A stretch of DNA of 64,000 nt from a virus. Shown in pieces: positions 5,909-33,298 of this stretch. The notes below the pieces were generated by a model. The model was not told the origin of the DNA. It searched no databases and was given only the letters and a program-made list of their open reading frames with translations. The translations under genes and the position numbers were made by a program. Location: the IMG/VR virus record IMGVR_UViG_3300005254_000135; one strand, 5' to 3'. The number at the start of each line of letters is the position of its first letter. Positions within the stretch are counted from its first letter, which is position 1.

Positions 5909-6238
5909 ATGATCGCGCGTAGAGTGCTGATAGCGGCGATAGTGTGCAGCCTGATCCTGTTGAGTGGATGCATAACTTTCCGGGAAAGATACGTGAACTC
6001 CCATCCGGGTCTCGATGACAAGACACGGGAGGCGATTCTTAAAGGCCAAATATTCATAGGCATGACTGCAGAGCAGGTTGAGGCTAGTTGGGGCTCGCCT
6101 GACAAAATCCATAAAAGTGTCGGCGCGACCTGGTCTCGAGAACAGTGGGTTTATGGAGGATTGAAGCCGGCGGGCAACTACGTAAGGCCAACGTACGTTT
6201 ACTTTGAGAAAGACCGCGTGACTGGGTGGCAGAAATAG
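5909..6238 (+). CDS. Lipoprotein with SmpA/OmlA (BamE)-like domain; candidate superinfection exclusion factor
   Basis: SD GGAGGT; lipobox LSG-C; IFIGMTAEQVEASWGSPD...EQWVY...YVYFEKDRV. Confidence 0.75.
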   Translation: MIARRVLIAAIVCSLILLSGCITFRERYVNSHPGLDDKTREAILKGQIFIGMTAEQVEASWGSPDKIHKSVGATWSREQWVYGGLKPAGNYVRPTYVYFEKDRVTGWQK

Positions 6239-6288
6239 CGTTACGATGGATATTGCCTACAAAACGACAGACCGCTGGTAATAAAGCG

Positions 6289-6436
6289 GCGGCCAGGAGG
6301 CTCCGCCTCTCGGAGAGACAGGTCTACCGGCTGATCGAGGCAGGCAAGCTGCGGGTCAGGCGATACTCGGCCCGGAAGACCTTTGTCCTTGTGGAGTCGA
6401 TCAGACAGTACCTTGAAGCCCACCTTGCTTGAGCAT
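6289..6436 (+). pseudogene. Second, 5'-truncated copy of the Xis-like HTH gene (repeat copy 2)
   Basis: Identical protein over the shared region but the original start is missing; lies in ORF 6226-6432 with an unrelated N-terminus. Confidence 0.7.
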
Positions 6437-6537
6437 TAGCGCTATTTCACCAGCTTACATACAGAGCAAAGATCAACCGGAACCTCCGGCCGATAAGGCA
6501 GAGTAAAATCTATCGAAGCTTGGCGCTGTCCTTTTTC

Positions 6538-6566
6538 TTGACATCCAAAGGACCATATCATAAAAA
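6538..6566 (+). promoter_or_regulatory. Sigma70-like promoter for the HEPN gene
   Basis: TTGACA-N17-TAAAAA, 22 nt upstream of ATG 6588. Confidence 0.65.
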
Positions 6567-6587
6567 TTTTAATAGAGGACTTTCCTG

Positions 6588-7769
6588 ATGACTTCACCTA
6601 AGAAACTATATAAGTTAGAGTTTCTGTTAGATGCGGGCAAGCATAACACCGCGAGTATGTTGAAGAAAGTCAATGTTGCCCTTGGGGCCCTAAAAAAAGG
6701 CCTCGATATACAAGTTGAGCCAGAAACTGGCAAACGGCTACGGTTGTGCATCGAAGGATCCTTGTCGGCTGTTGATAGGGCCCATGGGAGATTGAATAAA
6801 AAGTTCATCAAGTCTGGTTTTGCAGTTCGAACTATTGACGAGGCAGGGACAGAACTGCGAGATAACGCCTTCCGGGTAGTTGCCGAAATCGAGCAAGCAC
6901 TTCGCGCATTTATTCATAGGGTCACGACTGAGACGGTCGGCTTTGGATGGTGGGAGAAATGGAGCTCCCCAACCGCACGGAACAGGGCGGTAACCGTGCT
7001 GGAAAGGGCGCGGGACACAGGTGGCTTTCAGCATCCGATTGAGCTGATAGATTTCGATCATCTCATCGATCTAATCACTATTAATATCCGAGAACTGAGC
7101 GGTGAGCAGGCTTTCACGATTTCAGGCTTTTTGGAAATACTTAATGAATGTAATACATTTGAAGAGTTAAAGAATTTACTAGCTGAAAGAACAACCCCTC
7201 GTTCGGCATGGGATAACATATATGCCCTATACTTTGCCGATAAGGATTCCTGGAGCCAAATGAGCATAGAATTAAAAGAACATGTTATCCCAGCCAGAAA
7301 TAAGATCATGCACCATAGGCCATTTCACCAGTGGGAGCTCGATAAAATAACCGAAGTGCGGAATCGATTGTTGGCTATACTGAACACAGCAGAGAGACCG
7401 CCAAAACCAGAACAAGAAAAGATAAAAGTAGTAAGCGCGGAATTGTCAAGAGTTGCCAAACCCTGGATGGGCATGGTTATGGTACAGACAGCCGAGCCGG
7501 CCCAAAGGGCAGCCGAAGCACTAAAGCCAATCGGGAGGCTGATCGACCAATGGAATGAGCCGGCCCTAAGGATGGCTGAAGTGATGGAGCCATTTAGGAG
7601 GCTGATCGATCAAGTGAGTGAGCCGGCCCGGATGGCGGCTGAAGCGATGGAGCCATTTAGGAGGCTGATCGATCAAGTGAATGAGCCGGCCCGAAGAGTG
7701 GCTGAAGCGATGGAGCCATTCAGGAGGCTGATCGATCAAGTGAATGAGCCGGTCCTAAAGGGTGGCTGA
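6588..7769 (+). CDS. Swt1-like HEPN-domain RNase (candidate defence effector) with C-terminal 21-aa repeats; frameshifted near the 3' end
   Basis: EIEQALRAFI and RNKIMH (RxxxxH) HEPN motifs; AT-rich; ORF stops inside repeat 5 because of one extra base. Confidence 0.72.
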   Translation: MTSPKKLYKLEFLLDAGKHNTASMLKKVNVALGALKKGLDIQVEPETGKRLRLCIEGSLSAVDRAHGRLNKKFIKSGFAVRTIDEAGTELRDNAFRVVAEIEQALRAFIHRVTTETVGFGWWEKWSSPTARNRAVTVLERARDTGGFQHPIELIDFDHLIDLITINIRELSGEQAFTISGFLEILNECNTFEELKNLLAERTTPRSAWDNIYALYFADKDSWSQMSIELKEHVIPARNKIMHHRPFHQWELDKITEVRNRLLAILNTAERPPKPEQEKIKVVSAELSRVAKPWMGMVMVQTAEPAQRAAEALKPIGRLIDQWNEPALRMAEVMEPFRRLIDQVSEPARMAAEAMEPFRRLIDQVNEPARRVAEAMEPFRRLIDQVNEPVLKGG

Positions 7770-7809
7770 AGCGATGGGGCCAATCAGGAGGCTGATCGAA
7801 CGGGAGAAA
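7494..7809 (+). repeat. Five tandem in-frame 63-bp repeats (EPARxAAEAMEPFRRLIDQVN)
   Basis: GAGCCGG starts at 7494, 7557, 7620, 7683 and 7746; unit 5 has a 1-nt insertion. Confidence 0.95.
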
Positions 7810-8007
7810 GAGCTGGCGCAAAGGTTGGCTGAACAGATGGCCGGCCCGTCCCTGGAGGCGAGCCCGCAGCCTCAGCGAGCCCTTCCAAGGCCACGTCAGT
7901 CCCAAAAGAAGCCTAAAGCGGATAAAGACCATGCGGACGGAAAGAAGAAGGTGAGGAGCAAGCGGGCATCAACAGATAAGAACAGTACAACCGAGAATGA
8001 GGAGTAA
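7762..8007 (+). CDS. Out-of-frame continuation of the HEPN protein (rest of repeat 5 plus Lys-rich tail)
   Basis: VAEAMGPIRRLIE continues the repeat register after the extra A in CTAAAGGG (~7755-7762). Confidence 0.6.
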   Translation: MAEAMGPIRRLIEREKELAQRLAEQMAGPSLEASPQPQRALPRPRQSQKKPKADKDHADGKKKVRSKRASTDKNSTTENEE

Positions 8008-8088
8008 GGTCGAGCGGTGCAAGAGGAGAGTAGAGAGTCACTTCTGAAATATAATGTACTACATTTGGAAGTGAAGGAGGGCCGAGAA

Positions 8089-8478
8089 ATGGCAAAAACA
8101 AGAGTATTCATGAGTTTCGACTATGATAATGACAAGGATCTTCGAACCCTCTTGGCTGGACAAGCCAAGAACACCGACTCACCTTTCGAGCTGGCCGACT
8201 GGTCAGTCAAGGAGGCAATGACTGGAGACTGGAAGAAGAAAGTAAGGGAGAGAATAAAACGAGTGGATCAGATGATAGTGATCTGTGGCATGAAGACTGA
8301 CACTGCAACTGGTGTATCAGCCGAACTTATCATTGCCCAAGAGGAAAAGAAGCCGTATTTCCTTTTGCGAGGCTATAAAGACGAAATCTGCAAGAAGCCC
8401 AAGTCAGCCAAGGATTCTGATAAGGTATACAATTGGACTTGGGATAATCTTAAAAAACTTATTGGCGGAGCGCGGTAG
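8089..8478 (+). CDS. TIR-domain protein, Thoeris ThsB-like (MTH538/DUF1863 type)
   Basis: RVFMSFDYDND...DWSVKE...KVRERIK...IVICG...GVSAEL (catalytic Glu)...KPYF; SD GAAGGAGG; TATAAT at 8050. Confidence 0.85.
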   Translation: MAKTRVFMSFDYDNDKDLRTLLAGQAKNTDSPFELADWSVKEAMTGDWKKKVRERIKRVDQMIVICGMKTDTATGVSAELIIAQEEKKPYFLLRGYKDEICKKPKSAKDSDKVYNWTWDNLKKLIGGAR

Positions 8479-8483
8479 CGGTT

Positions 8484-8999
8484 GTGTCTAGCCATCCCGA
8501 AAACATGTTACCAGGTCTCTTCGACCATGGGATAGACGCAGATACGTACGGAACGGGCCAAACGTATTCAGTACATTTACTGGAACAGTACAAATTGTAC
8601 GTCGAGATGGCGGACAGAACGAGTTCAAGGCGTAATCTCGCTAACACCTTCTTCCTTACTCTGAACACGGGAATAATTGCTGCTATCGGGTTTGCACTAG
8701 ATAAGGGAGTCCATATCGGACGCAAGTGGACCTTGATTGGCCCCCTGATAGCCCTGCTTGCGCTTTGCTTCTCTTGGTGGTGTATTGTCAAATCGTACAG
8801 GAAACTTAATGAAGCTAAGTTCAAAGTAATCAATGAGATAGAGAAGCGGCTTCCTGCTTGTCCTTATTGCGCCGAGTGGAAGTGTTTGGGAGAGGGGCAG
8901 GAGCCAAAACTATATCGTGAGCTCACAAAAATTGAGAATTGGATCCCAGTAGTGTTTGCCGTATTGTATGTTATTGGAACCATTATGCTTATTGTGTAA
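8484..8999 (+). CDS. Small membrane effector (2-3 TM helices; RipA/SLATT-like)
   Basis: LLEQYKLYVEMADRTSSRRNLANTFFLTLNT, TM hairpin, SYRKLNEAKFKVINEIEKRLP, C-terminal TM; 5 nt after the TIR gene. Confidence 0.7.
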   Translation: MSSHPENMLPGLFDHGIDADTYGTGQTYSVHLLEQYKLYVEMADRTSSRRNLANTFFLTLNTGIIAAIGFALDKGVHIGRKWTLIGPLIALLALCFSWWCIVKSYRKLNEAKFKVINEIEKRLPACPYCAEWKCLGEGQEPKLYRELTKIENWIPVVFAVLYVIGTIMLIV

Positions 9000-9096
9000 A
9001 GGGTGACAGTCTTTCGGAGCTGTAAGGCCCAATAACTGATTCCGAAAGGTTGGCATTCACGTTTTATTCCGTTGGTCGACCATCGGAGGTGAATTT

Positions 9097-9603
9097 ATGG
9101 AAATCCCTGTTTTTGTTTCTTGTCCGACAACCCTTAGCCAGGCTCAAAGCTCTTTACGCAACAGTATTATCAAAATATTAAAAAAATATAGTTTAGAGCC
9201 ACGTTCTTTAGGACGTTCCGACTACCCGACACAAAACCCTCTTCAGGAGGTCCTTGCGATCGCCAGGCATTGTTCGGGCGGAATTATACTCGGTTTCAAG
9301 CAGTTTATTACAGATTCGGGCACATGGAAGCCGGATACGAGCGAACAAGAGCAAGTTTCAGGCTCTATCTGTTTCCCTTCGCCTTGGAATCAGCTCGAAG
9401 CAGGTATTTTATTTAGCCTTAAAATACCTCTGTTGGTTTTCAAGGAGGCGGAAATTAACGGGGGAATATTTGATAGTGGTGCTTCAAAGGTGTTCATACA
9501 TAACATGCCGATTAATTCTATTACTAATGAAATAATCAAACAATACGAAATAATTATACAAAAATGGCAAGGAGAGGTTAGAAAACATTATTATATATAT
9601 TGA
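9097..9603 (+). CDS. Second TIR-like / nucleotide-processing Rossmannoid protein
   Basis: PVFVSCP...LGRSDYP...PLQEV...CSGGIILG...SPWNQLEAG...IPLLVFKE; SD GGAGGT; very AT-rich. Confidence 0.6.
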   Translation: MEIPVFVSCPTTLSQAQSSLRNSIIKILKKYSLEPRSLGRSDYPTQNPLQEVLAIARHCSGGIILGFKQFITDSGTWKPDTSEQEQVSGSICFPSPWNQLEAGILFSLKIPLLVFKEAEINGGIFDSGASKVFIHNMPINSITNEIIKQYEIIIQKWQGEVRKHYYIY

Positions 9604-9807
9604 AGATGTGACACTTGATCCATAAAACACACTAATAGGTGGGCCGGGGGAGGCATACTCCACGGCCAATTCAAGCTCCTGTCAGCACCATCCAACCGAT
9701 TGGACCCTATTGAATTCCCATCATCTCAAATTCCGCACTACTCCTCAGTGCTCGACCGAAACCTTAAGTCTGTCCACCACAACGTCTAAAGTGCTATAGT
9801 ACTTCAT

Positions 9808-11790
9808 ATGGCCCCAAAGACACTCATCACCGTCACTCCCAAGGAGCTAAAACAAATCTTGGCCGCCCACCATGAATGGGTCCAATCCATGGGAGCGAAT
9901 GGGCAAAGGGCCAGCTTACACAGGGCAAATCTGTATTGGGCCAACCTGAATGGGGCTAACCTGCGTGAAGCAGATCTGAGTGAGGCCTTCCTGACCGGGG
10001 TAAAACTGTTATCGACCAACCTGATCGAAGCCGACCTTAGCGGAGCAAAACTTTCCGGAGCCTACCTGAAAGGAGCCAAACTAAATGCGGCCGATCTTTC
10101 CGAAGCCGACCTGTCTGGAGCCAACCTGAACGGGGCCAACCTGGTCGAGGCCGATCTATCCGGGGCCAACCTGTCCGGGGCCAACCTGGTCGAGGCCGAT
10201 CTGTCCGGGGCCAACCTGGTCGAGGCCGATCTATCCGGGGCCAACCTGAACGGGGCCAAGCTGAACGAGGCCGATTTAAGCGGGGCAAATCTTTCCGAAG
10301 CCAGCCTGATCGAGACCTACCTGGCTGGGGCCATCCTGAAAGGGGCCAAACTGGGTGAGGCTGACCTGTCCGGGGCCACCCCGAACAGAGCCAACCTGAG
10401 CGGGGCCAACCTGAGCGGAGCAAACCTTTTCAGGACCTATCTGATCGGGGCCTATATGGCCGAGGCCAACCTGCCCGGGGCTGAACTGACTGCAGCCAAC
10501 CTGAACGGAGCTAATCTGAGGGGGGCCAACCTGAAAGGGGCCCAACTGACCGAGGCCAGCCTTTTAGGGGCTATACTGCGGAGGGCCAGCCTGACCGAGG
10601 CAAGCCTGACCGGGGCCAACCTAGTCGGGGCCAACCTGATCGAGGCTGATCTGGCCAGGGCCGACTTGAAAGGGGCCAATCTGAGCAACGCCGACCTGAT
10701 TGAGACCAGCCTGAGTGAGACCAACCTGGCCTTGGCCAAATTGAACAAAGCGAACTTGAGCAAGGCCGATCTAAGTAAGACTAGCCTGATCTGTGCTATC
10801 CTGTCTGATGCCGATCTAAGCGATGCGACTCTAACCAAAGCCAACCTCCGGGGAGCCGACTTGACCGGCGCCTCCCTCGTCGAGGCTGTCCTGGAAAACG
10901 CCAACCTGGAGGACGCCAAGCTTGCCAACTGCAATATGAATGGCGCGCAGATGAAGGGCGCCCGTCTCTTCTTTCACCAGGCCGTAGACGCCCGAACCTG
11001 GATCGGCAAGCCGGAAGACCGTCATCTGATTCACTGGCGTCTCAAGCCTGGCGAGCAGCCCCCAGAACCATATGTCCTACTTTGGCTTTTCTCGGAGCAC
11101 AGGGAAATGGCCCAATGGCTGGAGAGACTACAACGGGCTCACCCCGGGGAGTGGGAGCTGCAGTCCGTCCTGGTAGCCGGGAAGCCTAAGTTCCAGATCA
11201 AGGTGTATTCTGATGACCTTAAGCGGCTAATTACTGAAAGCATCGAGGAAGCAGGGCTTCTCGCCCAAGGGGAAAGGATTGAGACAAACCTGCACCAGTT
11301 GATGGCCAAGGCCGAGCGCATTGAAGAGGGTGTGGTGGCCATCCAAAGCGTTCTGGATCATCAGAACGAGCATATCCAACAGATCGCCAGGCAATTGCAG
11401 GGCCTCAACCTGGAAACCCTGGACGGCCTTAAGCCTCTCCTGGAGAAGACGGACAAGGCCAAGGTTGCCTTTAGCCAAGATGACGTCATCCAGTTGACCG
11501 CCTTGTTTCGAGAGGCCCTGGCCAAGAACGAGGACAAGCCTGGATTTTGGTCCCGGATTGGAGAGACTTTCGGCGACTTGACCCAGCACTTCGGCATGCA
11601 CCTGGGAGTGTTGCCCCTGGCGGAACTTATCCACCGAAGCACTGGCGACTTGGGCTCGGTAACCCTGAGTGCCGGCTGCCTTATCGCTGTCCTGGCAGAC
11701 GTCTTCTTAAAATGGCGCGACGACAAAAAGAAGATCGAGCAGTATAAACAGCTTCCGGTTCCTGAAGATCCTGATCTGCAGGAAAGCTAA
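9808..11790 (+). CDS. Pentapeptide-repeat protein (660 aa) with C-terminal coiled coil and hydrophobic tail
   Basis: About 350 aa of A(D/N)LxG/A(D/N)Lxx repeats; ILAAHHEW...G.RA N-cap; C-terminal hydrophobic helices. Confidence 0.92.
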   Translation: MAPKTLITVTPKELKQILAAHHEWVQSMGANGQRASLHRANLYWANLNGANLREADLSEAFLTGVKLLSTNLIEADLSGAKLSGAYLKGAKLNAADLSEADLSGANLNGANLVEADLSGANLSGANLVEADLSGANLVEADLSGANLNGAKLNEADLSGANLSEASLIETYLAGAILKGAKLGEADLSGATPNRANLSGANLSGANLFRTYLIGAYMAEANLPGAELTAANLNGANLRGANLKGAQLTEASLLGAILRRASLTEASLTGANLVGANLIEADLARADLKGANLSNADLIETSLSETNLALAKLNKANLSKADLSKTSLICAILSDADLSDATLTKANLRGADLTGASLVEAVLENANLEDAKLANCNMNGAQMKGARLFFHQAVDARTWIGKPEDRHLIHWRLKPGEQPPEPYVLLWLFSEHREMAQWLERLQRAHPGEWELQSVLVAGKPKFQIKVYSDDLKRLITESIEEAGLLAQGERIETNLHQLMAKAERIEEGVVAIQSVLDHQNEHIQQIARQLQGLNLETLDGLKPLLEKTDKAKVAFSQDDVIQLTALFREALAKNEDKPGFWSRIGETFGDLTQHFGMHLGVLPLAELIHRSTGDLGSVTLSAGCLIAVLADVFLKWRDDKKKIEQYKQLPVPEDPDLQES

Positions 11791-11900
11791 TCCTTTCCCC
11801 TCCCCAACCCCCCTTTTTCTTAGCGACATAAGCGACACAAGCGCCCTCCCTCATAGTCCCGCCTGATTATCCTAATCCCTACCACAGCCTCGATATAAAT

Positions 11901-12830: not shown

Positions 12831-13251
12831 ATACGGCCCCCTGGCCCGGGACCTCTATCTCAAGGGCTACAGCCCGGAGGCCATCTCCCAGCAGCTCCAG
12901 GTCTCGGCCAAGACCATCAGGCAGTGGGCCGACTATCACGGCTGGGACAAGGAGCGCCGGCTCAAGGTGGCCTCGGGCCGGCAATTAGCCGAGCGGATGG
13001 AGGAGCTGATCCATTCCCACATCGCCGCCCTGGAGGAGAAGCCGGAGCTGACCCCGGGCGACCTGGACGGCCTGCAGAAGATGTACGTCGTCCTGGAGAA
13101 AGTGCGCCGGGGCACCTTCGCCTTCTCGGCCGCGGCGGTGGAGGTCTTTGAAAAATTCGCCCGCTGGCTCAACTCGGTCGAGGGCGACAAGGCCTTCCTG
13201 GAGCGCCTGGCCGGCCACGTCAGGAACTTCATGGCCCAGGTCGAGGGTTGA
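12814..13251 (+). CDS. Terminase small subunit-like HTH protein (DUF1804/gp27-like)
   Basis: ARDLYLKG...ISQQLQVSAKTIRQWADYHGWD; precedes the large terminase. Confidence 0.7.
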   Translation: MAKLPKYGPLARDLYLKGYSPEAISQQLQVSAKTIRQWADYHGWDKERRLKVASGRQLAERMEELIHSHIAALEEKPELTPGDLDGLQKMYVVLEKVRRGTFAFSAAAVEVFEKFARWLNSVEGDKAFLERLAGHVRNFMAQVEG

Positions 13252-14861
13252 GCGTGGGCCTGCTTGAGCATCCGGACTTCCAGCGCAAGCTGACCCGGCC
13301 CCAGTTCAAGAAGCGGGTCGAGGAGATCCTCCGCCTGCTCAAGACCGAGGTCCGCCCCTTCGAGGACCTGTCCGAGGCGGCGGCCAGGGCCAGGCGGGAG
13401 AGGGGCCGGGCCGACATCTTCAACTTCGCCCGGACCTATCTGCCCCATTACTTCTACTGCGAGGCGGCCGACTTCCACCTGGAGGCCGACGCCCTGATCA
13501 ACGCCCCGGCCGAGCCGGGCGAGCTCAAGCCGCCCATCGTCATCGCCGCGCCCCGCGACCACGCCAAATCCACGTCCATCACCCTCCTGCAGTCGCTCCA
13601 GCGGGCCGTCTACGGCCGCAACCATTTCACCATCCTGGGCTCTGATACCAAGGACTTGGCCGCGGACTTCAACGCCTATCTTTTCCTGGAGATGGTCGAG
13701 AACGAGCGCCTGACGGCCGACTTCGGCCAGCTCCTGGACCCCAACCAGTCGGTTTACGACTTCGTCACCGGGACGGGCGTCAGGATCCTGGCCCGGGGCT
13801 CGGGCCAGCGCCTCAGGGGCGTCAAGCATGGCCCCCACCGGCCGGACCTGTTCATCCTGGATGACATGGAAAACGATCAAAATGTCAAAAACCCCCGCCT
13901 GGTCGAGGCGCGGCTGAGGTGGGTCACCGAGGCGGTCCTGCCGGCCATCGCGGCCGACGGCGCCCTGGTCTGGGTGGGGACGATCCTGGCCCGCCGCTCG
14001 GCCCTGGGCCAGGTCATTCACAGCCAGAAGGAGCCCTACAAGCATTGGACCCGGCGCTGCTACCGGGCGATCGACCCCGAGGGCCGGGCCCTCTGGCCGG
14101 CGCGCTGGCCGGTTAACCAGCTCCTGGCCAAGAAGCGCCAGGTCGGCACGGTCGCCTTCAACAAGGAGTACCAGAACAACCCCCAGGACGAGGAGTCCCC
14201 GTTCCGGGAGGAGTGGTTCAGATACTACAGCCGGGCCGACCTGGAGCTGGTCCGCCGCCGGCTGCTGATCGCCTCGGGCACAGACCCCTCGTCCACGGCC
14301 CAGGGCGACAACAAGGGCCACACCGTAGTCGGTCTCGACCCCCTGACGATGGTCATCTACCTCCTGCGCACCTGGGGCAAGAAGCTCTCGCCCTCGGGCC
14401 TGCTGGATGCCCTCTACCTCTCTCACCGGCACCACGGCTGGGTGGCCGGCGGGATTGAGGACAACGCCCTCAAGGACTGGCTCAAGGAGGCGGTCGACCA
14501 GGCGGCCAAGCGCCACGGCCGCCGGCTGCCCCTCCGGGAAGTCCACAACTCGGCCAACAAGGAGGCCAGGATCGTGGGCACCCTGAGCCCCCTGGTCGAG
14601 GCCGGGCACATCCTGCTGCCCGAGGACGACCCCGAGGCCGAGGCGCTCAAGGAGGAACTGCTCTACATCCTGGACGGCTCCACCCCTGACGACCAGGCCG
14701 ACTCGGCCGAGATAGCCGTCAGGATCGTCCAGAGCCTGCCCAAGGGCGCGGCCGGCTACCAGCCGGTGGACAAGCGGACCGACTGGCACGGCCGGACCGA
14801 CGACGACGGGGCCGAGTCCGGCTTTATCCGCGAGCTGACCGCCGTCCGGGGGGTCTTCTGA
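13248..14861 (+). CDS. Terminase large subunit (Mu gp28-like)
   Basis: APRDHAKST Walker A, RPDLFILDDME Walker B, C-terminal nuclease with DPS and DDQAD. Confidence 0.9.
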   Translation: MSVGLLEHPDFQRKLTRPQFKKRVEEILRLLKTEVRPFEDLSEAAARARRERGRADIFNFARTYLPHYFYCEAADFHLEADALINAPAEPGELKPPIVIAAPRDHAKSTSITLLQSLQRAVYGRNHFTILGSDTKDLAADFNAYLFLEMVENERLTADFGQLLDPNQSVYDFVTGTGVRILARGSGQRLRGVKHGPHRPDLFILDDMENDQNVKNPRLVEARLRWVTEAVLPAIAADGALVWVGTILARRSALGQVIHSQKEPYKHWTRRCYRAIDPEGRALWPARWPVNQLLAKKRQVGTVAFNKEYQNNPQDEESPFREEWFRYYSRADLELVRRRLLIASGTDPSSTAQGDNKGHTVVGLDPLTMVIYLLRTWGKKLSPSGLLDALYLSHRHHGWVAGGIEDNALKDWLKEAVDQAAKRHGRRLPLREVHNSANKEARIVGTLSPLVEAGHILLPEDDPEAEALKEELLYILDGSTPDDQADSAEIAVRIVQSLPKGAAGYQPVDKRTDWHGRTDDDGAESGFIRELTAVRGVF

Positions 14862-16390
14862 TGCCGATTCTCCACGACCTCTTCGGCCGGCTCATCAAGG
14901 CCAAAGCCATGCGCCGGCCGCCCACCGACGAGCGGCGCGGCGGGCCCCGGCTGGTAGACCGCTGGACCTTCAGCGCGGCCACGGGCCTGACCCCGCGCAA
15001 GTTGGCCGCGATCCTCAGGGAGGCCGAGACCGGCGACGTCCGCCGCCAGGCCGAGCTCTTCGGGGCCATCTACGAGCGGGATGCCCACGTGCGCTCCGAG
15101 ATGGGCAAGCGGGTCTCGGCCGTGACCGGGCTGCCCTGGGAGATCTCGCCGGCCGACAAGTCGGAACGGGCGTCCCAGGTCGCCGCATTCGCCGGCGAGA
15201 CCCTGGAGGGCCTGAAGGCCTTCGGCCAGAGCCAGCGACGCCTCTGCGGGGCCGTGGGCATGGGCTACGCCCTGGAGGAGCTGACCTGGCGGCTGGAGGG
15301 CAACCGCTACCTGCCCAGCCTGCACGGGGTCGACCCGGCCAGGATCACCTTCGTCAATTCGCTCCAGCCACTCCTGATCACCGACGCCGAGCCCACCGGA
15401 GCCGAACTGGAGCCGTTCCGCTTCATCTATCACAGATACGAGTCCCTGTCCGGCCTGGAGGCCCGGGGCGGCCTCTACCGCACCCTGGCCTGGTACTACC
15501 TGTTCAAGCACCACGGCCTCAGGGATTGGATGATTTTCTTAGAATCGTTCGGCGTGCCCTACCGGATCGGCAAGTTCGAGCCCTCGGCCAGCGACGAGGA
15601 CAAGAAGACCCTGGCCGCGGCGGTCCGCTCCCTGGGCCTGGATGGGGCCGGGATCATCAGCAAGGAAGCTGAAATCGAGATCATCGAGGCGGCCAGCCGG
15701 ACCGGGGCCAGCCCGCACAAGGTCCTGATCGAGGTCTGCAACGCCGAGATGTCCAAGGCCATCTTGGGCCAGACCCTGAGCGCCGAGGTGGGCGAGCGGG
15801 GCAGCTACGCCGCGGCCAAGGTCCACGAGCAGGTCCGCCGGGATCTGCTCGAGGATGACGCCCGGGCCCTGGCTGAGACCCTCCAGGATCAGCTCGTCGC
15901 TCCCCTGGTCGGCTTCAACTTCGGCTGGGACGCGCCCATACCGCGAATCTACTTCGTCTTGCCCCGCTCGGCCGAGGAGATCAAGGCCGACAGGGATCTG
16001 CTGGGCGGGGCGCTCCGCGACGGCTTCCCGGTCAGCCAGGAGCTCTACTCGGAGCGGACCGGGCTGCGCCTGCCGGTCAAGGGTGAGACGGTCATGAGCG
16101 TCCCGGCCGGGCAGCCCCTCCTGGCCTCCCGGACGGCCTCGGCCGCCGGCGGGGAGACCCACCCCCTGGACGGCTTCGTCGACCTAGCCGTGGACCGGGC
16201 GGCCGGCCTGGACCTGGACGGCGAGGTGAAGCGGATCGCCGCCGGGGCGGCCGACGAGGAGGAGCTCCTGGAGCGCCTGGGCGAGATTTATGGGCGGATG
16301 CCCAACGAGAAGTTTCAAACCCTCCTGGCCAAGGCGATGCTGCTCGCCGACCTGGCCGGCCGGGCCAGGAATCAAGGGGATCGAGGCTAG
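14861..16390 (+). CDS. Portal protein (Mu gp29/DUF935)
   Basis: ERDAHVRSEMGKR, ESFGVPYRIGKF, EMSKAILGQTL...GSYAAAKVHEQVRRD. Confidence 0.92.
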   Translation: MPILHDLFGRLIKAKAMRRPPTDERRGGPRLVDRWTFSAATGLTPRKLAAILREAETGDVRRQAELFGAIYERDAHVRSEMGKRVSAVTGLPWEISPADKSERASQVAAFAGETLEGLKAFGQSQRRLCGAVGMGYALEELTWRLEGNRYLPSLHGVDPARITFVNSLQPLLITDAEPTGAELEPFRFIYHRYESLSGLEARGGLYRTLAWYYLFKHHGLRDWMIFLESFGVPYRIGKFEPSASDEDKKTLAAAVRSLGLDGAGIISKEAEIEIIEAASRTGASPHKVLIEVCNAEMSKAILGQTLSAEVGERGSYAAAKVHEQVRRDLLEDDARALAETLQDQLVAPLVGFNFGWDAPIPRIYFVLPRSAEEIKADRDLLGGALRDGFPVSQELYSERTGLRLPVKGETVMSVPAGQPLLASRTASAAGGETHPLDGFVDLAVDRAAGLDLDGEVKRIAAGAADEEELLERLGEIYGRMPNEKFQTLLAKAMLLADLAGRARNQGDRG

Positions 16391-17604
16391 TGGCCGAGGT
16401 CTTTAACCAGCCTTTCGATCAGGCGATAGAGTACTTTCTGGGCAAAGTACCACTAAGCCACGATCAGGTCCTGCGGATGAGCCGGGAGGCCCGCGCCCGG
16501 GCCTTCTGGATCAGCCACGTCAACCAGGAGGGGCTGGTCGAGGGCTTCTACGGCCAGGTCTACCGGGCCCTGGCCGGAGGCGAGACCTACGCCGATTTCA
16601 AGCGCTCGATAAGCGCACAATTCGACGCCCTGGGCTACAGCCGGATGAACCCCTTCCGTTTGCAAACCATCTTCGAGACCAACATGAACCTGGCCTACTC
16701 GGCCGGCAACTGGCGGGCCATGACCGACCCGGACGTGGTCAAGGCCAGGCCCCTGGGCCGCTGGCACGCCATGATGGACAGCCGCACCCGGCCGTCTCAT
16801 GCCGGTCTGCACGGCCGGGTCTGGCCCCTGAAAGACGCCTTCTGGGAGACCCACTGGCCGCCCCTGGACTGGGGCTGCCGCTGTACCGTGGACAGCCTCT
16901 CGGCCGAGGAGGCCCGGGCCCAGGGCCTCGAGGTGGAGGGGTCCACGGGCCAGATCATGGTCGAGCCCCTCGACCCGGTCACCCGGGACAGGCAACCGGC
17001 CAGGCCGCTGATGGTCGACCCGAATTGGGCCTACAACCCCGGCCAGACGGCCTGGGGCCGGCCCCCGGCCTGGCGGGCCAGGCAGAGCTACGAGCAGACC
17101 CTGGGGCCGGGCTGGAAGCCCCTTGTCAAGGGGGGCTGGCGGGAGGCCGGGCGGCCGGAAGTTCTCCATACCAAAGAATCTCCGACCGGCCTGGGTCCCG
17201 ACGTCGAGAGCAGGCAGCAGGCCGAAGCCCTCCTGGAGGAAATCCTGGGCGGCCAGATGAAGGTCTTCAAGGACCCCCAGAGCAAGCCGGTTTTGGCCAC
17301 GGTGGACCTGGCCCGGCACCTGGCCCAGGCCGGCGGCCGGGGGCCCTATCTACCCCTCCTGCCCCACGTCATCGAGGGACCGGCCGAGATCTGGCTCCAA
17401 CCCCTGCGTTCCGAGGTCAGCGGCCGGGTGGTGATGAGGCGGGCTTACATCCAGTCCTTCGAGCGCAAGGGCGGCCGGGGCGTGGTCACCGTGGCCGAGT
17501 ACCAGAAGGGCGCCTGGGTGGCCTTGACGACCTACCCCGAGCGCTCGGCCAGGCGGGTCAATGATCGCTTCCGGTGGGGGGTGCTGCAGTGGGCGGAAAA
17601 ATAA
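16390..17604 (+). CDS. MuF/gp30 head morphogenesis protein with C-terminal BECR-fold (PBECR2-like) nuclease domain
   Basis: RLQTIFETN...DSRTRPSHAGLHG...PPLDWGCRC MuF core; C-terminal LLPHVIEGPAEIW...RRAYIQSF...ALTTYP. Confidence 0.85.
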   Translation: MAEVFNQPFDQAIEYFLGKVPLSHDQVLRMSREARARAFWISHVNQEGLVEGFYGQVYRALAGGETYADFKRSISAQFDALGYSRMNPFRLQTIFETNMNLAYSAGNWRAMTDPDVVKARPLGRWHAMMDSRTRPSHAGLHGRVWPLKDAFWETHWPPLDWGCRCTVDSLSAEEARAQGLEVEGSTGQIMVEPLDPVTRDRQPARPLMVDPNWAYNPGQTAWGRPPAWRARQSYEQTLGPGWKPLVKGGWREAGRPEVLHTKESPTGLGPDVESRQQAEALLEEILGGQMKVFKDPQSKPVLATVDLARHLAQAGGRGPYLPLLPHVIEGPAEIWLQPLRSEVSGRVVMRRAYIQSFERKGGRGVVTVAEYQKGAWVALTTYPERSARRVNDRFRWGVLQWAEK

Positions 17605-17678
17605 AATGCAGGCCAGCCCTCCGAGCGGCTGCTGCACGCTCCCTCGGCCCATCGGGCCCGGACCCGGACCGAGTTTGC
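17597..17678 (-). ncRNA. Candidate ~80-nt antisense sRNA
   Basis: Own promoter, two hairpins (one with a G-U pair only on the - strand) and a U-tract at 17597-17606. Confidence 0.55.
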
Positions 17679-17684
17679 AAATTT

Positions 17685-17713
17685 AGAATAACCCCTAATG
17701 GCGGGAGAGTCAA
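17685..17713 (-). promoter_or_regulatory. Reverse sigma70 promoter
   Basis: TTGACT (rc 17708-13) - N17 - TATTCT (rc 17685-90). Confidence 0.7.
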
Positions 17714-17719
17714 GGGCTT

Positions 17720-18244
17720 ATGGCCGGGCTGAGCATCAAGATCGACGGCTCGCGGGTTGACCGGAACCTGCGGCGCATCGAGCGCCGCCTGGGCAACCTC
17801 AGGCCGGTCATGGCCGCGATCGGCCAACTGGCCGTGACCTCGATCCGGCGCAACTTCGAGGAGGGCGGCCGGCCCGAGAAGTGGCGGCCGCTCAAGGCCT
17901 CGACCATCCGGGGCCAGTGGACCGCCGGCAACCGGGCCAGAAAGCGCAAGCGGGCGGTCAAGGCCGGCGGCAAGTTCAGCGCCGGGTACAAGCGCTTCGC
18001 CGCCGGCAAGAAGGTCCTGATCCGGTCGGGTCGGCTGCTCCGTTCGATCAACGCCCGGCCGGGCCGGCGGCAAGTTTGGGTGGGGACCAACCTCAAGTAC
18101 GCGGCCATTCATCACTTCGGCGGCCGGGCCGGCCGGGGCCACAAGACGATCATTCCGGCGCGGCCCTTCCTGATGCTCCAGGCCGAGGATCACCAGGAAA
18201 TCAGGGCCCTGCTGGCCCGGCACGCCACCGGGGAGAGAGGTTAA
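17720..18244 (+). CDS. Virion morphogenesis protein (Mu gpG-like)
   Basis: RNFEEGGRPEKWRPLK...LIRSGRLLRSI...VGTNLKYAAIHHFGG...IPARPFL. Confidence 0.92.
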   Translation: MAGLSIKIDGSRVDRNLRRIERRLGNLRPVMAAIGQLAVTSIRRNFEEGGRPEKWRPLKASTIRGQWTAGNRARKRKRAVKAGGKFSAGYKRFAAGKKVLIRSGRLLRSINARPGRRQVWVGTNLKYAAIHHFGGRAGRGHKTIIPARPFLMLQAEDHQEIRALLARHATGERG

Positions 18245-27406: not shown

Positions 27407-28353
27407 GCGACTGGCCGGAGATAAGACGGGCAGCCGAAAAGGGCCAGGCCGCCTCCTACCGGGGCGTGGCCTTCCACGTCCTGGCGGACGAGGACAACTT
27501 CAGCCACGCCCTGGCCGTCCACGAGTTTCCCCACCGGGCCGGGGCGGAGGTCGAGGACCTGGGCCGGGGCGCGGCCAGGTTCAACCTGCGCTGCATCTTC
27601 TTCCGGGAAAACTACCCCAACCTGCGGCCCTTCCTGGCGGCCCTGCACCAGACCGGCCCCGGCACCCTGGAGCACCCCTTCCTGGGCTCCCGGCAGGTCG
27701 TGGTCGGTCAGGTCGGCCAGACCCACGAAGCGCCCAAGGTCCGCTGGGCCGAGCTGGCCGTGGAGTTTGTCGCCCACGAGCCCAGCGGCCAGACGGCCCG
27801 GCTGCTGCCCAGCCTGTCCCCCTCCGGCCTGGCCGCCCGGGCCCAGTCCCGGGTCGAGACCGGCCTGACCTCGGCCCGGAGCCAGGTCAGCCGGCTGGCC
27901 CATCAGGCCAGCCAGGCCGGCCTGGCCGCCCAGCGCCAGGCGCGCCGGGCCCTGGGCCAGGTAACCTCCGAGATCCAGCGCCGGACCGGGGTTGCAATCA
28001 CGCTGCCCTCCGGAGCCGGGAGCTGGATCGACGCCCCGGTCGGCTTCTGCGACCAGGTCGCGGATACCGTCCAGGAAAGGGCTAGGACGGTCATCGGCGC
28101 GCCCGGCTCGGTCGGGGCCAACTTCCGCCTCTTCACGAACGAGCTGGAGGACATGGACCTCGAGCTGTCCGGCCTCCAGAGGAGCCTGCCCCAGGAGGGG
28201 CGGCGCTTCCTGCGCATGGCCGGGACGGCCGCGGCCGTCCGGGCCGCCGGGGAGCTGATCCAGGCCGGCCTGGCCCTCGAGGACGGCAACCCGTTCAGCG
28301 GCGAGTACCTGGGCGTGGAGGCCCAACCGGCCGAGGAGGAGTCGTGGGCCTGA
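27403..28353 (+). CDS. DNA circularisation protein, N-terminal part (Mu gpN-like)
   Basis: ASYRGVAFHV...HEFPHRAGAEVEDLGR...GPGTLEHPFLG. Confidence 0.88.
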   Translation: MSDWPEIRRAAEKGQAASYRGVAFHVLADEDNFSHALAVHEFPHRAGAEVEDLGRGAARFNLRCIFFRENYPNLRPFLAALHQTGPGTLEHPFLGSRQVVVGQVGQTHEAPKVRWAELAVEFVAHEPSGQTARLLPSLSPSGLAARAQSRVETGLTSARSQVSRLAHQASQAGLAAQRQARRALGQVTSEIQRRTGVAITLPSGAGSWIDAPVGFCDQVADTVQERARTVIGAPGSVGANFRLFTNELEDMDLELSGLQRSLPQEGRRFLRMAGTAAAVRAAGELIQAGLALEDGNPFSGEYLGVEAQPAEEESWA

Positions 28354-30474: not shown

Positions 30475-30857
30475 GCGTCGGCGAGCGGGCCATAGACCCG
30501 ATCACGGGCGATTACTCCCTCGCCGCCGGTGGCGATTTCGCGGAAGAGGACGGCCTGGGCAACGAGGTCTACAAGCGGATCTTCCAGGTCTTGGGTGAAG
30601 CGCCCCTCGAGCCCAACGTGGGCCGGGTGCGCCGGGAGAGGCTCAAGGACTTGGATCAGGTCAGGCGTCAGCTCATCGAGGACGTCGAGCAGGCCCTGGC
30701 CCCGATGGTCGAGGCCGGCCGGGCCGAATCGGTCGAGGTCGAGGAGGTCGAGCCCCCGAGCCAGATGCCCAGGTTGGGCCGGTTCTTCCTGCTCGTCACC
30801 GTCGCCGAGGTGGGGGGCCGGGTGAGAACGTTCAATTACTGGATACGGGTTATTTAG
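30471..30857 (+). CDS. Baseplate wedge protein (Mu gp46-like), copy 1
   Basis: AIDPITGDY...EQALAPMVEAGRAESVEV; position before baseplate J. Confidence 0.75.
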   Translation: MSVGERAIDPITGDYSLAAGGDFAEEDGLGNEVYKRIFQVLGEAPLEPNVGRVRRERLKDLDQVRRQLIEDVEQALAPMVEAGRAESVEVEEVEPPSQMPRLGRFFLLVTVAEVGGRVRTFNYWIRVI

Positions 30858-31433: not shown

Positions 31434-33298
31434 TGTCCGCGGCCATCAGCCAGATATTGGGCGCCCGCGAGTACCGCTTCGACGTGGTCGACGCGGCCGC
31501 CAACGCCCGTTGCCGGGCTGATTGGTCCAGCCGGATCGGCGGCCGGGACGAATCCACCGGGGGCAAGTGCGTCCCCAACTTTAATCTAAGCCGCTGGAAT
31601 AACGAAGCCTGGCTGAACATCAACTGCCCGGACCTGGTCGGCGATCAACGAGAGATCCTCAGCGACGGCCGGCTGACCCTCGACCTGGGCAGCAGGGTCC
31701 ATAGGTTCTATCCGGTCGGGGATAATCACATAGAGTGGGAGATCGAGTTCCCAGCCAGGCCCGCGAGCAACGTCATCGAGTTCAACCTCAAATTCAGCGA
31801 TAATCTCCGCTTTCCTTATCAGCCTGCCTTGACCCAGGCGGATCTGGATCGGGGCCGCTACCGGCCGCCCGAGGTGGTCGGCTCTTATCCGGTCTATGTG
31901 GCCGGCAAGAGGCATAACCGCTACCAGACCGGGAAAATCGCCCACATCTACCGCCCCAAGGCCAGGGACGCCGAGGGCAAGGAGGTGTGGTGCGACCTGA
32001 ATATCGATGCCCCGTCCGGGAAAATGACCGTGACCATTCCGGCCGACTGGCTGAACGCGGCCGCCTACCCCGTGATATTGGACCCCTATTACGGCTTTAC
32101 CAGCGAGCCGATGACCGAGGAGGCCAACACGGGCCTGCTCTGCGGGACGGGCGACTACACCGCCGCCTTTCCCGGAAACTATACCGTCACCGCGCTCCAT
32201 GCCTACCATCGCGTCTCGGCCGGGCCCCGGAATTGGCAGGGCTGCGTCTATCAATGTGATACCGAGACGCACGGTTATCCCATACCGGGCAATCTCCTGG
32301 GCTCGTCCGCCGTCCACGCCTGCTCTCATACCTCAAAAACGCTTTCCTCTGTTGCGATCAATCTCGCCCTCAGCGCTGGCGAGTATTACTATCCCTGCAT
32401 TGCCAGCCAGCGCGCCTCCGGCGGTTCCGTCCATTACACCTACTACGATAGCGCTGTTGATTATCATTGGTGCGGCTATTACCCGGACCCGGAGCTGGTT
32501 TTCGAGGATTGGTTCGAGGACGGAGCCGGCGTCTGGTCCTCCTGGGACAGTGCCTACGGCGTCTATCTCGAGTATTCGACCAGCACGATCCATGAAGTAT
32601 CCCTGACCATCTCCGGCGCCGGCGACGCCGCCCCATCCGCCAAGTCGATAATTCCCGTCGCCCTGGCCCTCAAGGGCGGGGGGCAGTGCAGCCCATCCGG
32701 GGTCCTGGAGTTCAGCCGGAGCGTTAGTTTCCAGGCCGTCGGGGCCGTCTCCTGCGCCGCCGGGATGATTATCAGCCGGATCCTGGATATCACAGCCGGG
32801 GCGAACGTGGCGGCCAGCGCCTCGGCAGTGCTGGCCCCGGGCCTGACCATCGCCGGCGCCGGCCAGGTGCAGCCATACTGGGGGCTCCGGCGCCGGTTTT
32901 CCCTGCCCCCCAGATCCGCGGTCCTGGGCGAGCGGGCCATAGACCCGGTCACGGGCGACTACTCCCTCGCCGCCGGCGGCGATTTCGCGGTGGACGACGG
33001 CTGTGGCAACGAGGCCTATAAGCGCATTTTCCAGGTCCTGTATGAGCCGCCCCTCGAGCCCAACGTGGGCCGGGTGCACCGGGAGCGGCTCAAGGACCTG
33101 ACCCGGGTCAGGCGACAGCTATCCGAGGACTGCGAGAAGGCCCTGGCCCCGATGATCGAGGCCGGCCGGGTCAAGTCGGTCACAGTCCAGGAGGTCCAGC
33201 CGGCCACGCCCAGAACGGGCTGGCTCTACCTGCTGGTCACCGTCATCGAGGCGGGCGGCCGGCGCCGCACCTTTGACTACTGGATACCGGTGATCTGA
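31433..33298 (+). CDS. 621-aa fusion of beta-rich putative adhesin/stalk domains with a second gp46-like domain
   Basis: The last ~125 aa align with 30471-30857; the N-terminal domain ends AAYPVILDP. Confidence 0.75.
   Translation: MSAAISQILGAREYRFDVVDAAANARCRADWSSRIGGRDESTGGKCVPNFNLSRWNNEAWLNINCPDLVGDQREILSDGRLTLDLGSRVHRFYPVGDNHIEWEIEFPARPASNVIEFNLKFSDNLRFPYQPALTQADLDRGRYRPPEVVGSYPVYVAGKRHNRYQTGKIAHIYRPKARDAEGKEVWCDLNIDAPSGKMTVTIPADWLNAAAYPVILDPYYGFTSEPMTEEANTGLLCGTGDYTAAFPGNYTVTALHAYHRVSAGPRNWQGCVYQCDTETHGYPIPGNLLGSSAVHACSHTSKTLSSVAINLALSAGEYYYPCIASQRASGGSVHYTYYDSAVDYHWCGYYPDPELVFEDWFEDGAGVWSSWDSAYGVYLEYSTSTIHEVSLTISGAGDAAPSAKSIIPVALALKGGGQCSPSGVLEFSRSVSFQAVGAVSCAAGMIISRILDITAGANVAASASAVLAPGLTIAGAGQVQPYWGLRRRFSLPPRSAVLGERAIDPVTGDYSLAAGGDFAVDDGCGNEAYKRIFQVLYEPPLEPNVGRVHRERLKDLTRVRRQLSEDCEKALAPMIEAGRVKSVTVQEVQPATPRTGWLYLLVTVIEAGGRRRTFDYWIPVI

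Follow-up and report, generated by a model that had tools for sequence, protein, structure and literature searches.

Mu-like phages commonly encode MuF proteins that carry a PBECR domain, and these proteins are believed to enter the host together with the injected DNA. The subject of this work is a very probable small-RNA gene on the minus strand, directly downstream of such a MuF gene, in the IMG/VR provirus record IMGVR_UViG_3300005254_000135 (~70 kb, G+C roughly 69%), of which a stretch of 64,000 nucleotides (nt), called the window, was analysed. The gene sits in a Mu-type head module, and its RNA is considered as a partner of PBECR2, the ribonuclease (RNase)-like domain with which the MuF protein ends. 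A preliminary description of the window, made from the sequence without database searches, had proposed a self-contained RNA in place of an immunity gene at this position.

Toxin–antitoxin (TA) systems of type III (ToxIN, CptIN, TenpIN and, broadly, AvcID) pair a protein RNase with a structured, pseudoknot-prone RNA on mobile or phage DNA, as is found here. The analogy to these systems in the preliminary description held in the broad sense of an RNA set on a protein RNase. It did not hold in detail, since the tandem repeats that lie upstream of a type III toxin on the same strand and are cut by it are absent. The RNA of the window is instead single-copy, without a repeat array, downstream, convergent and provided with its own promoter, and the RNase-like domain has a predicted BECR-type fold, is fused to a virion protein and is not of the ToxN/AbiE type. 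Colicin D/ImmD and CdiA-CT/CdiI are BECR-fold tRNases that an adjacent, tightly co-evolving partner neutralizes. They were the best structural neighbours of the domain model, with weak similarity (Z at most 5.3), but their partners are proteins.

The MuF polymorphic toxins (Jamet et al. 2017, PMC5576092) consist of a MuF module and a variable enzymatic C-terminus, with a partner gene immediately downstream. The same arrangement was found in the window, where domain and neighbour also seem to swap as one cassette in comparison with the closest relative, L004, although the downstream partner is an RNA and not a protein. Compact conserved RNAs tied to one nearby protein domain, in either orientation, are likewise represented by the skipping-rope, drum and DUF3800-I to -XI RNAs, which are often followed by a terminator and show many unrelated folds per protein family (Weinberg et al. 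2017, PMC5737381). The present RNA differs from them in matching no Rfam model and in its partner, PBECR2 on MuF in Mu-like head modules.

The OOP RNA of phage lambda, which acts on cII, and RatA, which acts on txpA, are convergent antisense RNAs with their own promoter and terminator that form an extended duplex. The RNA of the window is similarly short and convergent and overlaps the 3′ end of the gene it faces; it is unlike them in its conserved tertiary pairing, its putative RNase-domain target and a coding overlap of only ~10 nt. Type I toxins are small hydrophobic peptides, whereas the target here is a virion protein of 404 amino acids (aa) with an RNase domain. No published account of an RNA that partners MuF-PBECR came to light in a literature search.

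The small-RNA gene and its conserved structure

The minus strand of the gap between the MuF gene and gpG contained a promoter, two hairpins and a U-tract (Table 1). The reverse promoter TTGACT-N17-TATTCT of the preliminary description was present, matched the sigma-70 type at 9 of 12 positions, and was the only promoter-like site that the scanner reported between 16000 and 19000, where shuffled sequences gave 0.2. The first stem, P1, was found as proposed (CTCGGTCC/GGGCCGAG) and holds one G-U pair, which becomes C-A on the plus strand. The second hairpin also lay before the U-tract as proposed; it was missed by the terminator scanner because its stem has a 2-nt bulge. Read from the sequence, the sigma-70-type promoter and the hairpin with its U-tract make up a predicted independent bacterial transcription unit.

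It is the comparison with relatives that raises the feature above chance, as a single sequence proves little. Loci were fetched by a gpG anchor (60 viral, 80 genomic and 80 metagenomic), and a 15-sequence MAFFT alignment, in which covariation was already visible in P1 and P2, was made into a covariance model, R1. The sequence searched with it came to ~1 Mb and was drawn from head loci of Mu-like type, roughly 240 in number. All matches with E < 1e-3 were opposite the MuF strand and abutted the stop codon of a PBECR2-type MuF gene. They included five non-seed loci, with a spurious open reading frame (ORF) overlapping the RNA in three. A second model, R2, added five weaker members in the same place, two of them below 1e-3. 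The family comprised 25 of the ~240 Mu-like loci (R1/R2) and two loci fetched independently through a HMMER search of 1.84 billion proteins, which yielded 1331 relatives of PBECR2. These two matched R2: L257, with a split MuF/PBECR2 gene followed by a protease gene (E 1.9e-7), and L259, with a portal-MuF-PBECR2 fusion (E 8e-4). Among the members are the cultured phages Thermus Riverbug and Meiothermus MMP7. Homologous minus-strand sequence was present directly after MuF in these two and in Meiothermus MMP17 (34–36% identity); all three have a PBECR2 domain like that of the window and a protease gene, not gpG, as the next gene.

The structure was counted on A7, the 20-sequence model alignment. 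In P1, 90% of cells were paired and 6 of 7 pairs had changed on both sides; in P2, 95% were paired and 2 of 3 pairs had changed in this way (GGG/CCC to GGA/UCC). For the stem of hairpin 2 the values were 68% and 5 of 5 pairs. Each hairpin loop is complementary to the other, and the loop-loop helix of six bases that they would form was paired in 83% of cells and changed on both sides in 6 of 6 pairs; the alignment was not fitted to it, because the helix was never in the model. The complementarity was kept in L257 (UCGCGG/CCGCGA) and L259 (CCAGUA/UGCUGG, with one G-U pair), and the pairing could occur within one molecule or between molecules. For the whole structure, 83.7% of cells paired compared with 61.4% in shuffled alignments, and the covariation score was 0.645 compared with 0.243 (reached in 0 of 500 shuffles) and with at most 0.20 in slid controls. 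The paired columns held 37 G-U and 11 A-C combinations, which favours the minus strand.

The promoter was kept along with the fold. The -35/-10 pair was in phase in 17 of 20 members, with the -10 hexamer ending ~3 nt before the start of the model, and it was retained in Riverbug, in which gpG is not the next gene. At its 3′ end, the match reached into the MuF ORF by 10 nt in the window and by 2–18 nt in relatives. The U-tract over the MuF stop codon, which had been part of the original proposal, was good in the window and weak in most other members. Since a clean U-tract is not general, 3′-end formation may differ between members. In summary, the promoter-hairpin layout recurs at MuF-PBECR loci and its stems covary, but the terminator is not family-wide; membership in a conserved family and the complementary loops go beyond the preliminary description, as does this limit on the terminator. 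As a gene layout, the self-contained minus-strand unit of ~80 nt is strongly supported by the covariance model, the phased promoter and the covariation. These comparisons make a real, conserved, structured RNA gene tied to the PBECR2 domain highly probable.

Searches for known RNAs were negative. ARAGORN called no tRNA or transfer-messenger RNA in the gaps it was run on, that of the window and those of 13 relatives. Rfam 15 gave no family at E up to 5 on 17000–18200 or at E up to 10 on 17585–17725 (141 nt), and no match in 20 related loci. An 18-mer scan of genome contigs returned chance matches in unrelated genomes only. The R1 search of the 64-kb window found no second strong match, and there were no repeats at the locus and no second copy of the motif in the window; a repeated element or shared activator site was rejected on this ground.

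Linkage of the RNA to RNase-type extensions of MuF

Each locus was scored for MuF upstream of gpG, for the C-terminal extension of MuF and for gap length, and extension clusters were assigned by Pfam. A gap of 80–180 nt was found with 41 of 44 RNase-type extensions, compared with 5 of 46 MuF genes without an extension, 27 of which abut or overlap gpG (all counts are distinct loci). The gap measured 104–145 nt in 21 of the 23 loci with a PBECR2 extension and was longer in the other two; it was 95–160 nt in all 10 loci of a PBECR3-type cluster and 83–169 nt in 10 of the 11 loci of a weakly MuF_C-like cluster. No such gap accompanied the ADP-ribosyltransferase extension of L164 or the D12 methylase extension of L096, and in phage Mu the F gene overlaps G, with no gap and no RNA gene there. 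Sigma-70-like promoters were found on the minus strand of 36 of 47 distinct gaps, clustered near the gpG start, and on the plus strand of 15, where they were scattered.

Within the PBECR2 cluster, the RNA also followed the state of the predicted active site. The conserved His and Arg residues (DLARHL and VMRRAY in the window) were kept in 24 of 24 loci with an R1/R2 match, the 25th match, L157, being outside this tally, whereas the His was replaced in 9 of the 16 PBECR2 loci without a match. In most of these nine there is still a gap, but it holds another minus-strand RNA, which in several of them ends in a textbook terminator; L254 and L256 are gapless.

Solo PBECR2 proteins were not found by a word-index search, and the one solo locus that was fetched, L258, gave no R2 match. 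At L258:661-1959, two genes stand in tandem outside a MuF context, one (258 aa) containing PBECR3 and the other (152 aa) a solo PBECR2; they are followed by a minus-strand ORF of 124 aa. The RNA model of the window gives no match at this locus.

The MuF protein and its C-terminal domain

The MuF protein scored above the Pfam gathering threshold for Phage_Mu_F and lies in a portal-MuF-gpG head module. Its C-terminus, which the preliminary description had called BECR-fold-like, matched PBECR2 (E 8.8e-20) over positions 8–119 of the 120 in the profile. The active-site His of PBECR domains is located in the N-terminal helix (Iyer et al. 2017, PMC5512222), and the His of DLARHL was invariant in the PBECR2 alignment A4 and in the window. 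The C-terminal domain of MuF in phage Mu itself has been described as an inactive PBECR, and RNA binding was predicted for it (Iyer et al., PMC5512222).

An AlphaFold2 model of the C-terminal 135 aa had a predicted local distance difference test score of 84.5. The best VIA-align neighbours of the model were BECR RNases, CdiA-CT (7m5f, Z 5.3) and colicin D (5znm, Z 5.1), followed at low Z (at most 5.3) by colicin E5, BrnT, RelE and YoeB; all Z values were below 6. Foldseek gave no match to the PDB at E up to 0.001. This predicted likeness to BECR RNases agrees with Pfam and proves nothing on its own.

The gap of 115 nt was as described previously, but the statement that it holds no ORF was correct only in that no ORF is conserved. 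The mechanical list contained plus-strand ORFs of 41 and 52 aa and long minus-strand ORFs across the gap, which are spurious because the DNA is high in G+C. An ATG within the bulge is lost in relatives. A small protein encoded in the gap was rejected, as the ORFs that are present are not conserved.

Comparison with the closest relative

The nearest relative, whose MuF protein is 86% identical, was found on four contigs, L004–L007, which are identical in this region. When the window was compared with L004, the N-terminal part of MuF, hairpin 1, the promoter and gpG were 92–98% identical at the nucleotide level, whereas the PBECR2 domain and the 3′ hairpin diverged jointly at a mosaic boundary (Table 1). 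The stem of hairpin 2 was rewritten by compensatory changes in L004, and the A-rich tract was retained. The pattern looks like a cassette swap with its right edge between the two hairpins. The segment 17635–17719 was ~93% identical to L004, equal to the flanking genes. This is background identity and therefore no evidence by itself, and extra conservation of the segment was rejected for the same reason.

Other RNAs and proteins in the same slot

Different RNase-family extensions were followed by different structured RNAs in the slot after MuF (Table 1). In the MuF_C-like cluster, a tRNA-like small RNA was observed, with a T-arm GGTTCGAATCC, a conserved TTGTTTCCAATGGGAA and a covarying acceptor-like stem of 7–11 bp; Rfam gave none in six loci, and ARAGORN none in the similar L031 and L044. 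In the PBECR3-type cluster, a third conserved RNA had the core GGAAACACGGUGAAUCUCCCGGCCGUAGGACG ... GGAUCGCGUG and a covarying closing stem, with no Rfam match. In three PBECR2 loci with Asp/Asn for the His, L139, L142 (Allorhizobium sonneratiae) and L155, the minus-strand RNA was of another kind and had a textbook terminator, of which GGCCGG...CCGGCC before UUUUAUAA is one example. The kind of RNA seems to go with the subfamily of the nuclease.

MuF genes with other extensions had a convergent ORF of 58–82 aa with a strong ribosome-binding site in the same position and orientation. The extension was a glutamine deamidase in L032 and belonged to no Pfam family in L036, L135, L150 and L201. The ORF of L150 encodes a DUF7675 protein, and those of L036 and L135 are conserved between the two loci. 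These ORFs probably encode immunity proteins. The RNA gene of PBECR loci therefore occupies the place at which other MuF toxins seem to have a partner that is a protein. This supports the earlier suggestion that an RNA stands here in place of an immunity gene, since in non-RNase MuF toxins the slot is taken by a small convergent ORF for a protein.

The RNA as a candidate partner of PBECR2

A role of the RNA as a dedicated partner of the PBECR2 domain is well supported by the conservation and linkage of the two sequences. In the favoured explanation, the RNA would be transcribed toward MuF from its own sigma-70-type promoter and would end over the MuF stop codon. The product of ~80 nt would fold into a bulged hairpin (P1 and P2) and a second hairpin with mutually complementary loops. 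It would be tied genetically, as a dedicated partner, to the RNase domain PBECR2 on MuF, a protein packed into the phage head, and by binding this domain it would hold it inactive in the lysogen and in the virion-assembling cell. The RNA would do the job that the immunity protein does for other MuF toxins.

This inhibitor or immunity role is favoured because the RNA occurs only with RNase-type domains and co-varies with them on a fine scale, because its slot is shared with protein ORFs, and because a promoter of constitutive type faces the late operon. RNA-based immunity or control of the nuclease, as first put forward in the preliminary description, is the most economical reading of the linkage. 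From comparative data of this kind we infer transcription, binding and neutralization, and the probability that the gene encodes a dedicated partner that binds and neutralizes the PBECR2 RNase is estimated at roughly 0.5.

Several observations weigh against this explanation. Folding of the single sequence was no better than that of shuffles (z -0.53 on the minus strand and +0.15 on the plus strand), and the minimum free energy structure omitted the conserved first stem. Given the short linker in the window, there seems to be little steric room for the two loops to kiss coaxially inside a single molecule, by estimate and not by calculation. PBECR2 genes without an adjacent RNA occur in L254/L255 and L256 and as the solo PBECR2 of L258. 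The loci are related, so the locus counts overstate the number of independent events. Furthermore, an mRNA reading through from MuF into gpG would match the RNA with perfect complementarity, which leaves room for an antisense mode of action.

Such a mode, in which the RNA acts in cis by pairing with the late MuF-gpG mRNA and triggers cleavage or blocks read-through so that MuF-PBECR2 is silent in the lysogen, is the strongest of the alternatives and is nevertheless considered unlikely. It would account for a convergent RNA whose 3′ end overlaps the MuF ORF in all members (by 2–18 nt) and for a constitutive-looking promoter that faces the late operon, and transcriptional interference is also possible, as the -35 hexamer adjoins the ribosome-binding site of gpG. 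However, a plain antisense RNA needs no conserved intramolecular fold, while P1, P2 and the loop-loop helix are kept by compensatory change, and the coding overlap is only ~10 nt. It is also difficult to reconcile with a distribution in which the RNA accompanies RNase-bearing MuF and not plain, ADP-ribosyltransferase or methylase MuF, and in which other RNase families have unrelated folds, some of them tRNA-like, in this slot.

A non-inhibiting partner is slightly less probable again. The RNA could be a cofactor, substrate, scaffold or cargo of PBECR2, for example packed into the capsid with MuF and carried into the host that is infected next, or cleaved by the domain into a fragment that is active. 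The evidence of domain linkage applies equally to such a partner, and the loop-loop complementarity could drive multimers. RNA binding was predicted for the inactive C-terminal domain of Mu MuF (PMC5512222), and for the protein-associated skipping-rope, drum and DUF3800 RNAs a task that makes high biochemical demands was considered possible (Weinberg et al., PMC5737381). Mu, with its inactive domain, is nonetheless without the RNA gene, which speaks against the fold serving simply for packaging or binding, and the protein ORF in the slot of non-RNase MuF toxins fits immunity better than a cofactor.

The weakest alternative, that there is no RNA gene and that the hairpins act on the plus-strand mRNA (processing or stability) or on the DNA (a late-activator site) beside a chance minus-strand promoter, can draw on a plus-strand TAGAAT downstream of the dyad (17684–17689), on hairpins able to pair on either strand and on the ordinary identity of 17635–17719 to L004, but it is very improbable, because L004 has CAGGAT in place of TAGAAT, promoter matches on the plus strand (15 of 47 gaps) show no common position while those on the minus strand (36 of 47) cluster by the gpG start, G-U outnumbers A-C, the promoter is phased and present even where gpG is missing, and the prophage lacks the further copy of the motif that would be expected of a shared activator site. 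A plus-strand late promoter composed of TAGAAT and the dyad was rejected, since relatives do not keep it and the tests of strand favour the minus strand.

The neutralizing role can tentatively be extended to the other subfamilies, although this broader scheme is held with less confidence than the role itself. PBECR2, PBECR3 and MuF_C-like domains might generally be under immunity RNAs, each subfamily with its own co-evolving fold and some of the RNAs acting as tRNA mimics. The RNA would be made constitutively from the prophage, so that lysogens would be immune to the RNase injected by kin phages, and the loop-loop pairing may assemble RNA-protein multimers.

Coordinates and other features of the window

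The features of the window and the RNAs and ORFs of the related loci are collected in Table 1.

Table 1. Positions of genes, domains and RNA elements in the window and at related loci.
Feature	Position	Strand	Remarks
Large terminase-like ORF	13248-14861		Weak Pfam match only
Portal_Mu gene	14861-16390		Pfam; upstream of MuF
MuF (gp30-like) head protein gene	16390-17604	+	404 aa; Pfam
Phage_Mu_F domain (PF04233)	about 16555-16890		aa 56-167; E 1.4e-21, 77.8 bits, gathering cutoff 29.6
PBECR2 domain (PF18810), RNase-like	about 17239-17592		aa 284-401; E 8.8e-20, 71.5 bits, cutoff 27.1
Variable cassette relative to L004	17137-17640		PBECR2 domain and 3′ hairpin; nucleotide identity 60-87%
Gap between MuF and gpG	17605-17719		115 nt
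Small-RNA gene, covariance-model match	17595-17681	-	87 nt; R1, 62.1 bits, E 1.9e-11; predicted transcript ~80 nt
U-tract TTTTATTTTT / UUUUAUUUUU	17597-17606	-	After hairpin 2; over MuF TAA stop, 17602-17604
Hairpin 2	17607-17636	-	Stem 17627-17636 with 17607-17618
Hairpin 2 loop, CUCGGA	17620-17625	-	Complementary to hairpin 1 loop
Hairpin 1	17643-17673	-	P1 and P2
P1 stem, CTCGGTCC/GGGCCGAG	17666-17673 with 17643-17650	-	
P2 stem, GGG/CCC	17663-17665 with 17654-17656	-	
Hairpin 1 loop, UCCGGG	17657-17662	-	3-nt bulge GAU at 17651-17653
Predicted transcription start	about 17676-17679	-	Placed from spacing
-10 hexamer, TATTCT	17685-17690	-	Promoter scan; 17-nt spacer from -35
-35 hexamer, TTGACT	17708-17713	-	Promoter scan; 7 nt upstream of gpG start codon, adjoins gpG ribosome-binding site
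gpG (virion morphogenesis, Phage_tail_S)	17720-18244	+	Pfam, E 2.7e-23; outside the RNA module
tRNA-like RNA	L099:1911-1993	-	MuF_C-like cluster
tRNA-like RNA	L107:1910-1994	-	MuF_C-like cluster
tRNA-like RNA	L112:1909-1994	-	MuF_C-like cluster
tRNA-like RNA	L148:1883-1968	-	MuF_C-like cluster
tRNA-like RNA	L134:1859-1949	-	Actinobacillus minor NM305
tRNA-like RNA	L131:1830-1926	-	Giesbergeria anulus
PBECR3-type RNA	L133:1899-1990	-	Aquitalea palustris
PBECR3-type RNA	L147:1902-1993	-	Chitinibacter sp.
PBECR3-type RNA	L154:1881-1973	-	
PBECR3-type RNA	L128:1846-1949	-	
Convergent ORF	L032:2190-2438	-	
Convergent ORF	L036:2260-2436	-	
Convergent ORF	L135:1748-1930	-	
Convergent ORF	L150:1705-1938	-	
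Convergent ORF	L201:1740-1952	-	

Elsewhere in the window, positions 6000–11800 form a low-GC island (45–58% compared with ~69% elsewhere). An ORF of 660 aa (9808–11790) consists mostly of 15-nt repeats that are read as pentapeptide repeats (A-N-L-S-G), and the ORF at 6588–7769 carries 5.5 copies of a 63-nt repeat at 7494–7840. ARAGORN called a tRNA-His inside the portal gene (15386–15465, minus strand) and a tRNA-Ile (27862–27941, minus strand); both are probably false positives, because they are 80 nt long with off-position anticodons in GC-rich coding DNA. A direct repeat of 275 nt with 85% identity is present 2.4 kb apart at 30480–30754 and 32927–33201, and it is continued by an 87-nt repeat at 30767–30853 and 33208–33294, which suggests duplicated neighbouring genes in the late region.

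Significance

The RNA family is present in Riverbug/T. thermophilus HB8 and in Meiothermus MMP7 and MMP17, and the idea is therefore directly testable. If the RNA neutralizes PBECR2, a partner RNA would explain how both the producing cell and the lysogen tolerate a MuF-PBECR protein. The same finding would offer a testable role for the protein-associated skipping-rope, drum and DUF3800 RNAs, and it would extend RNA antidotes from abortive-infection modules to effectors carried in the virion.

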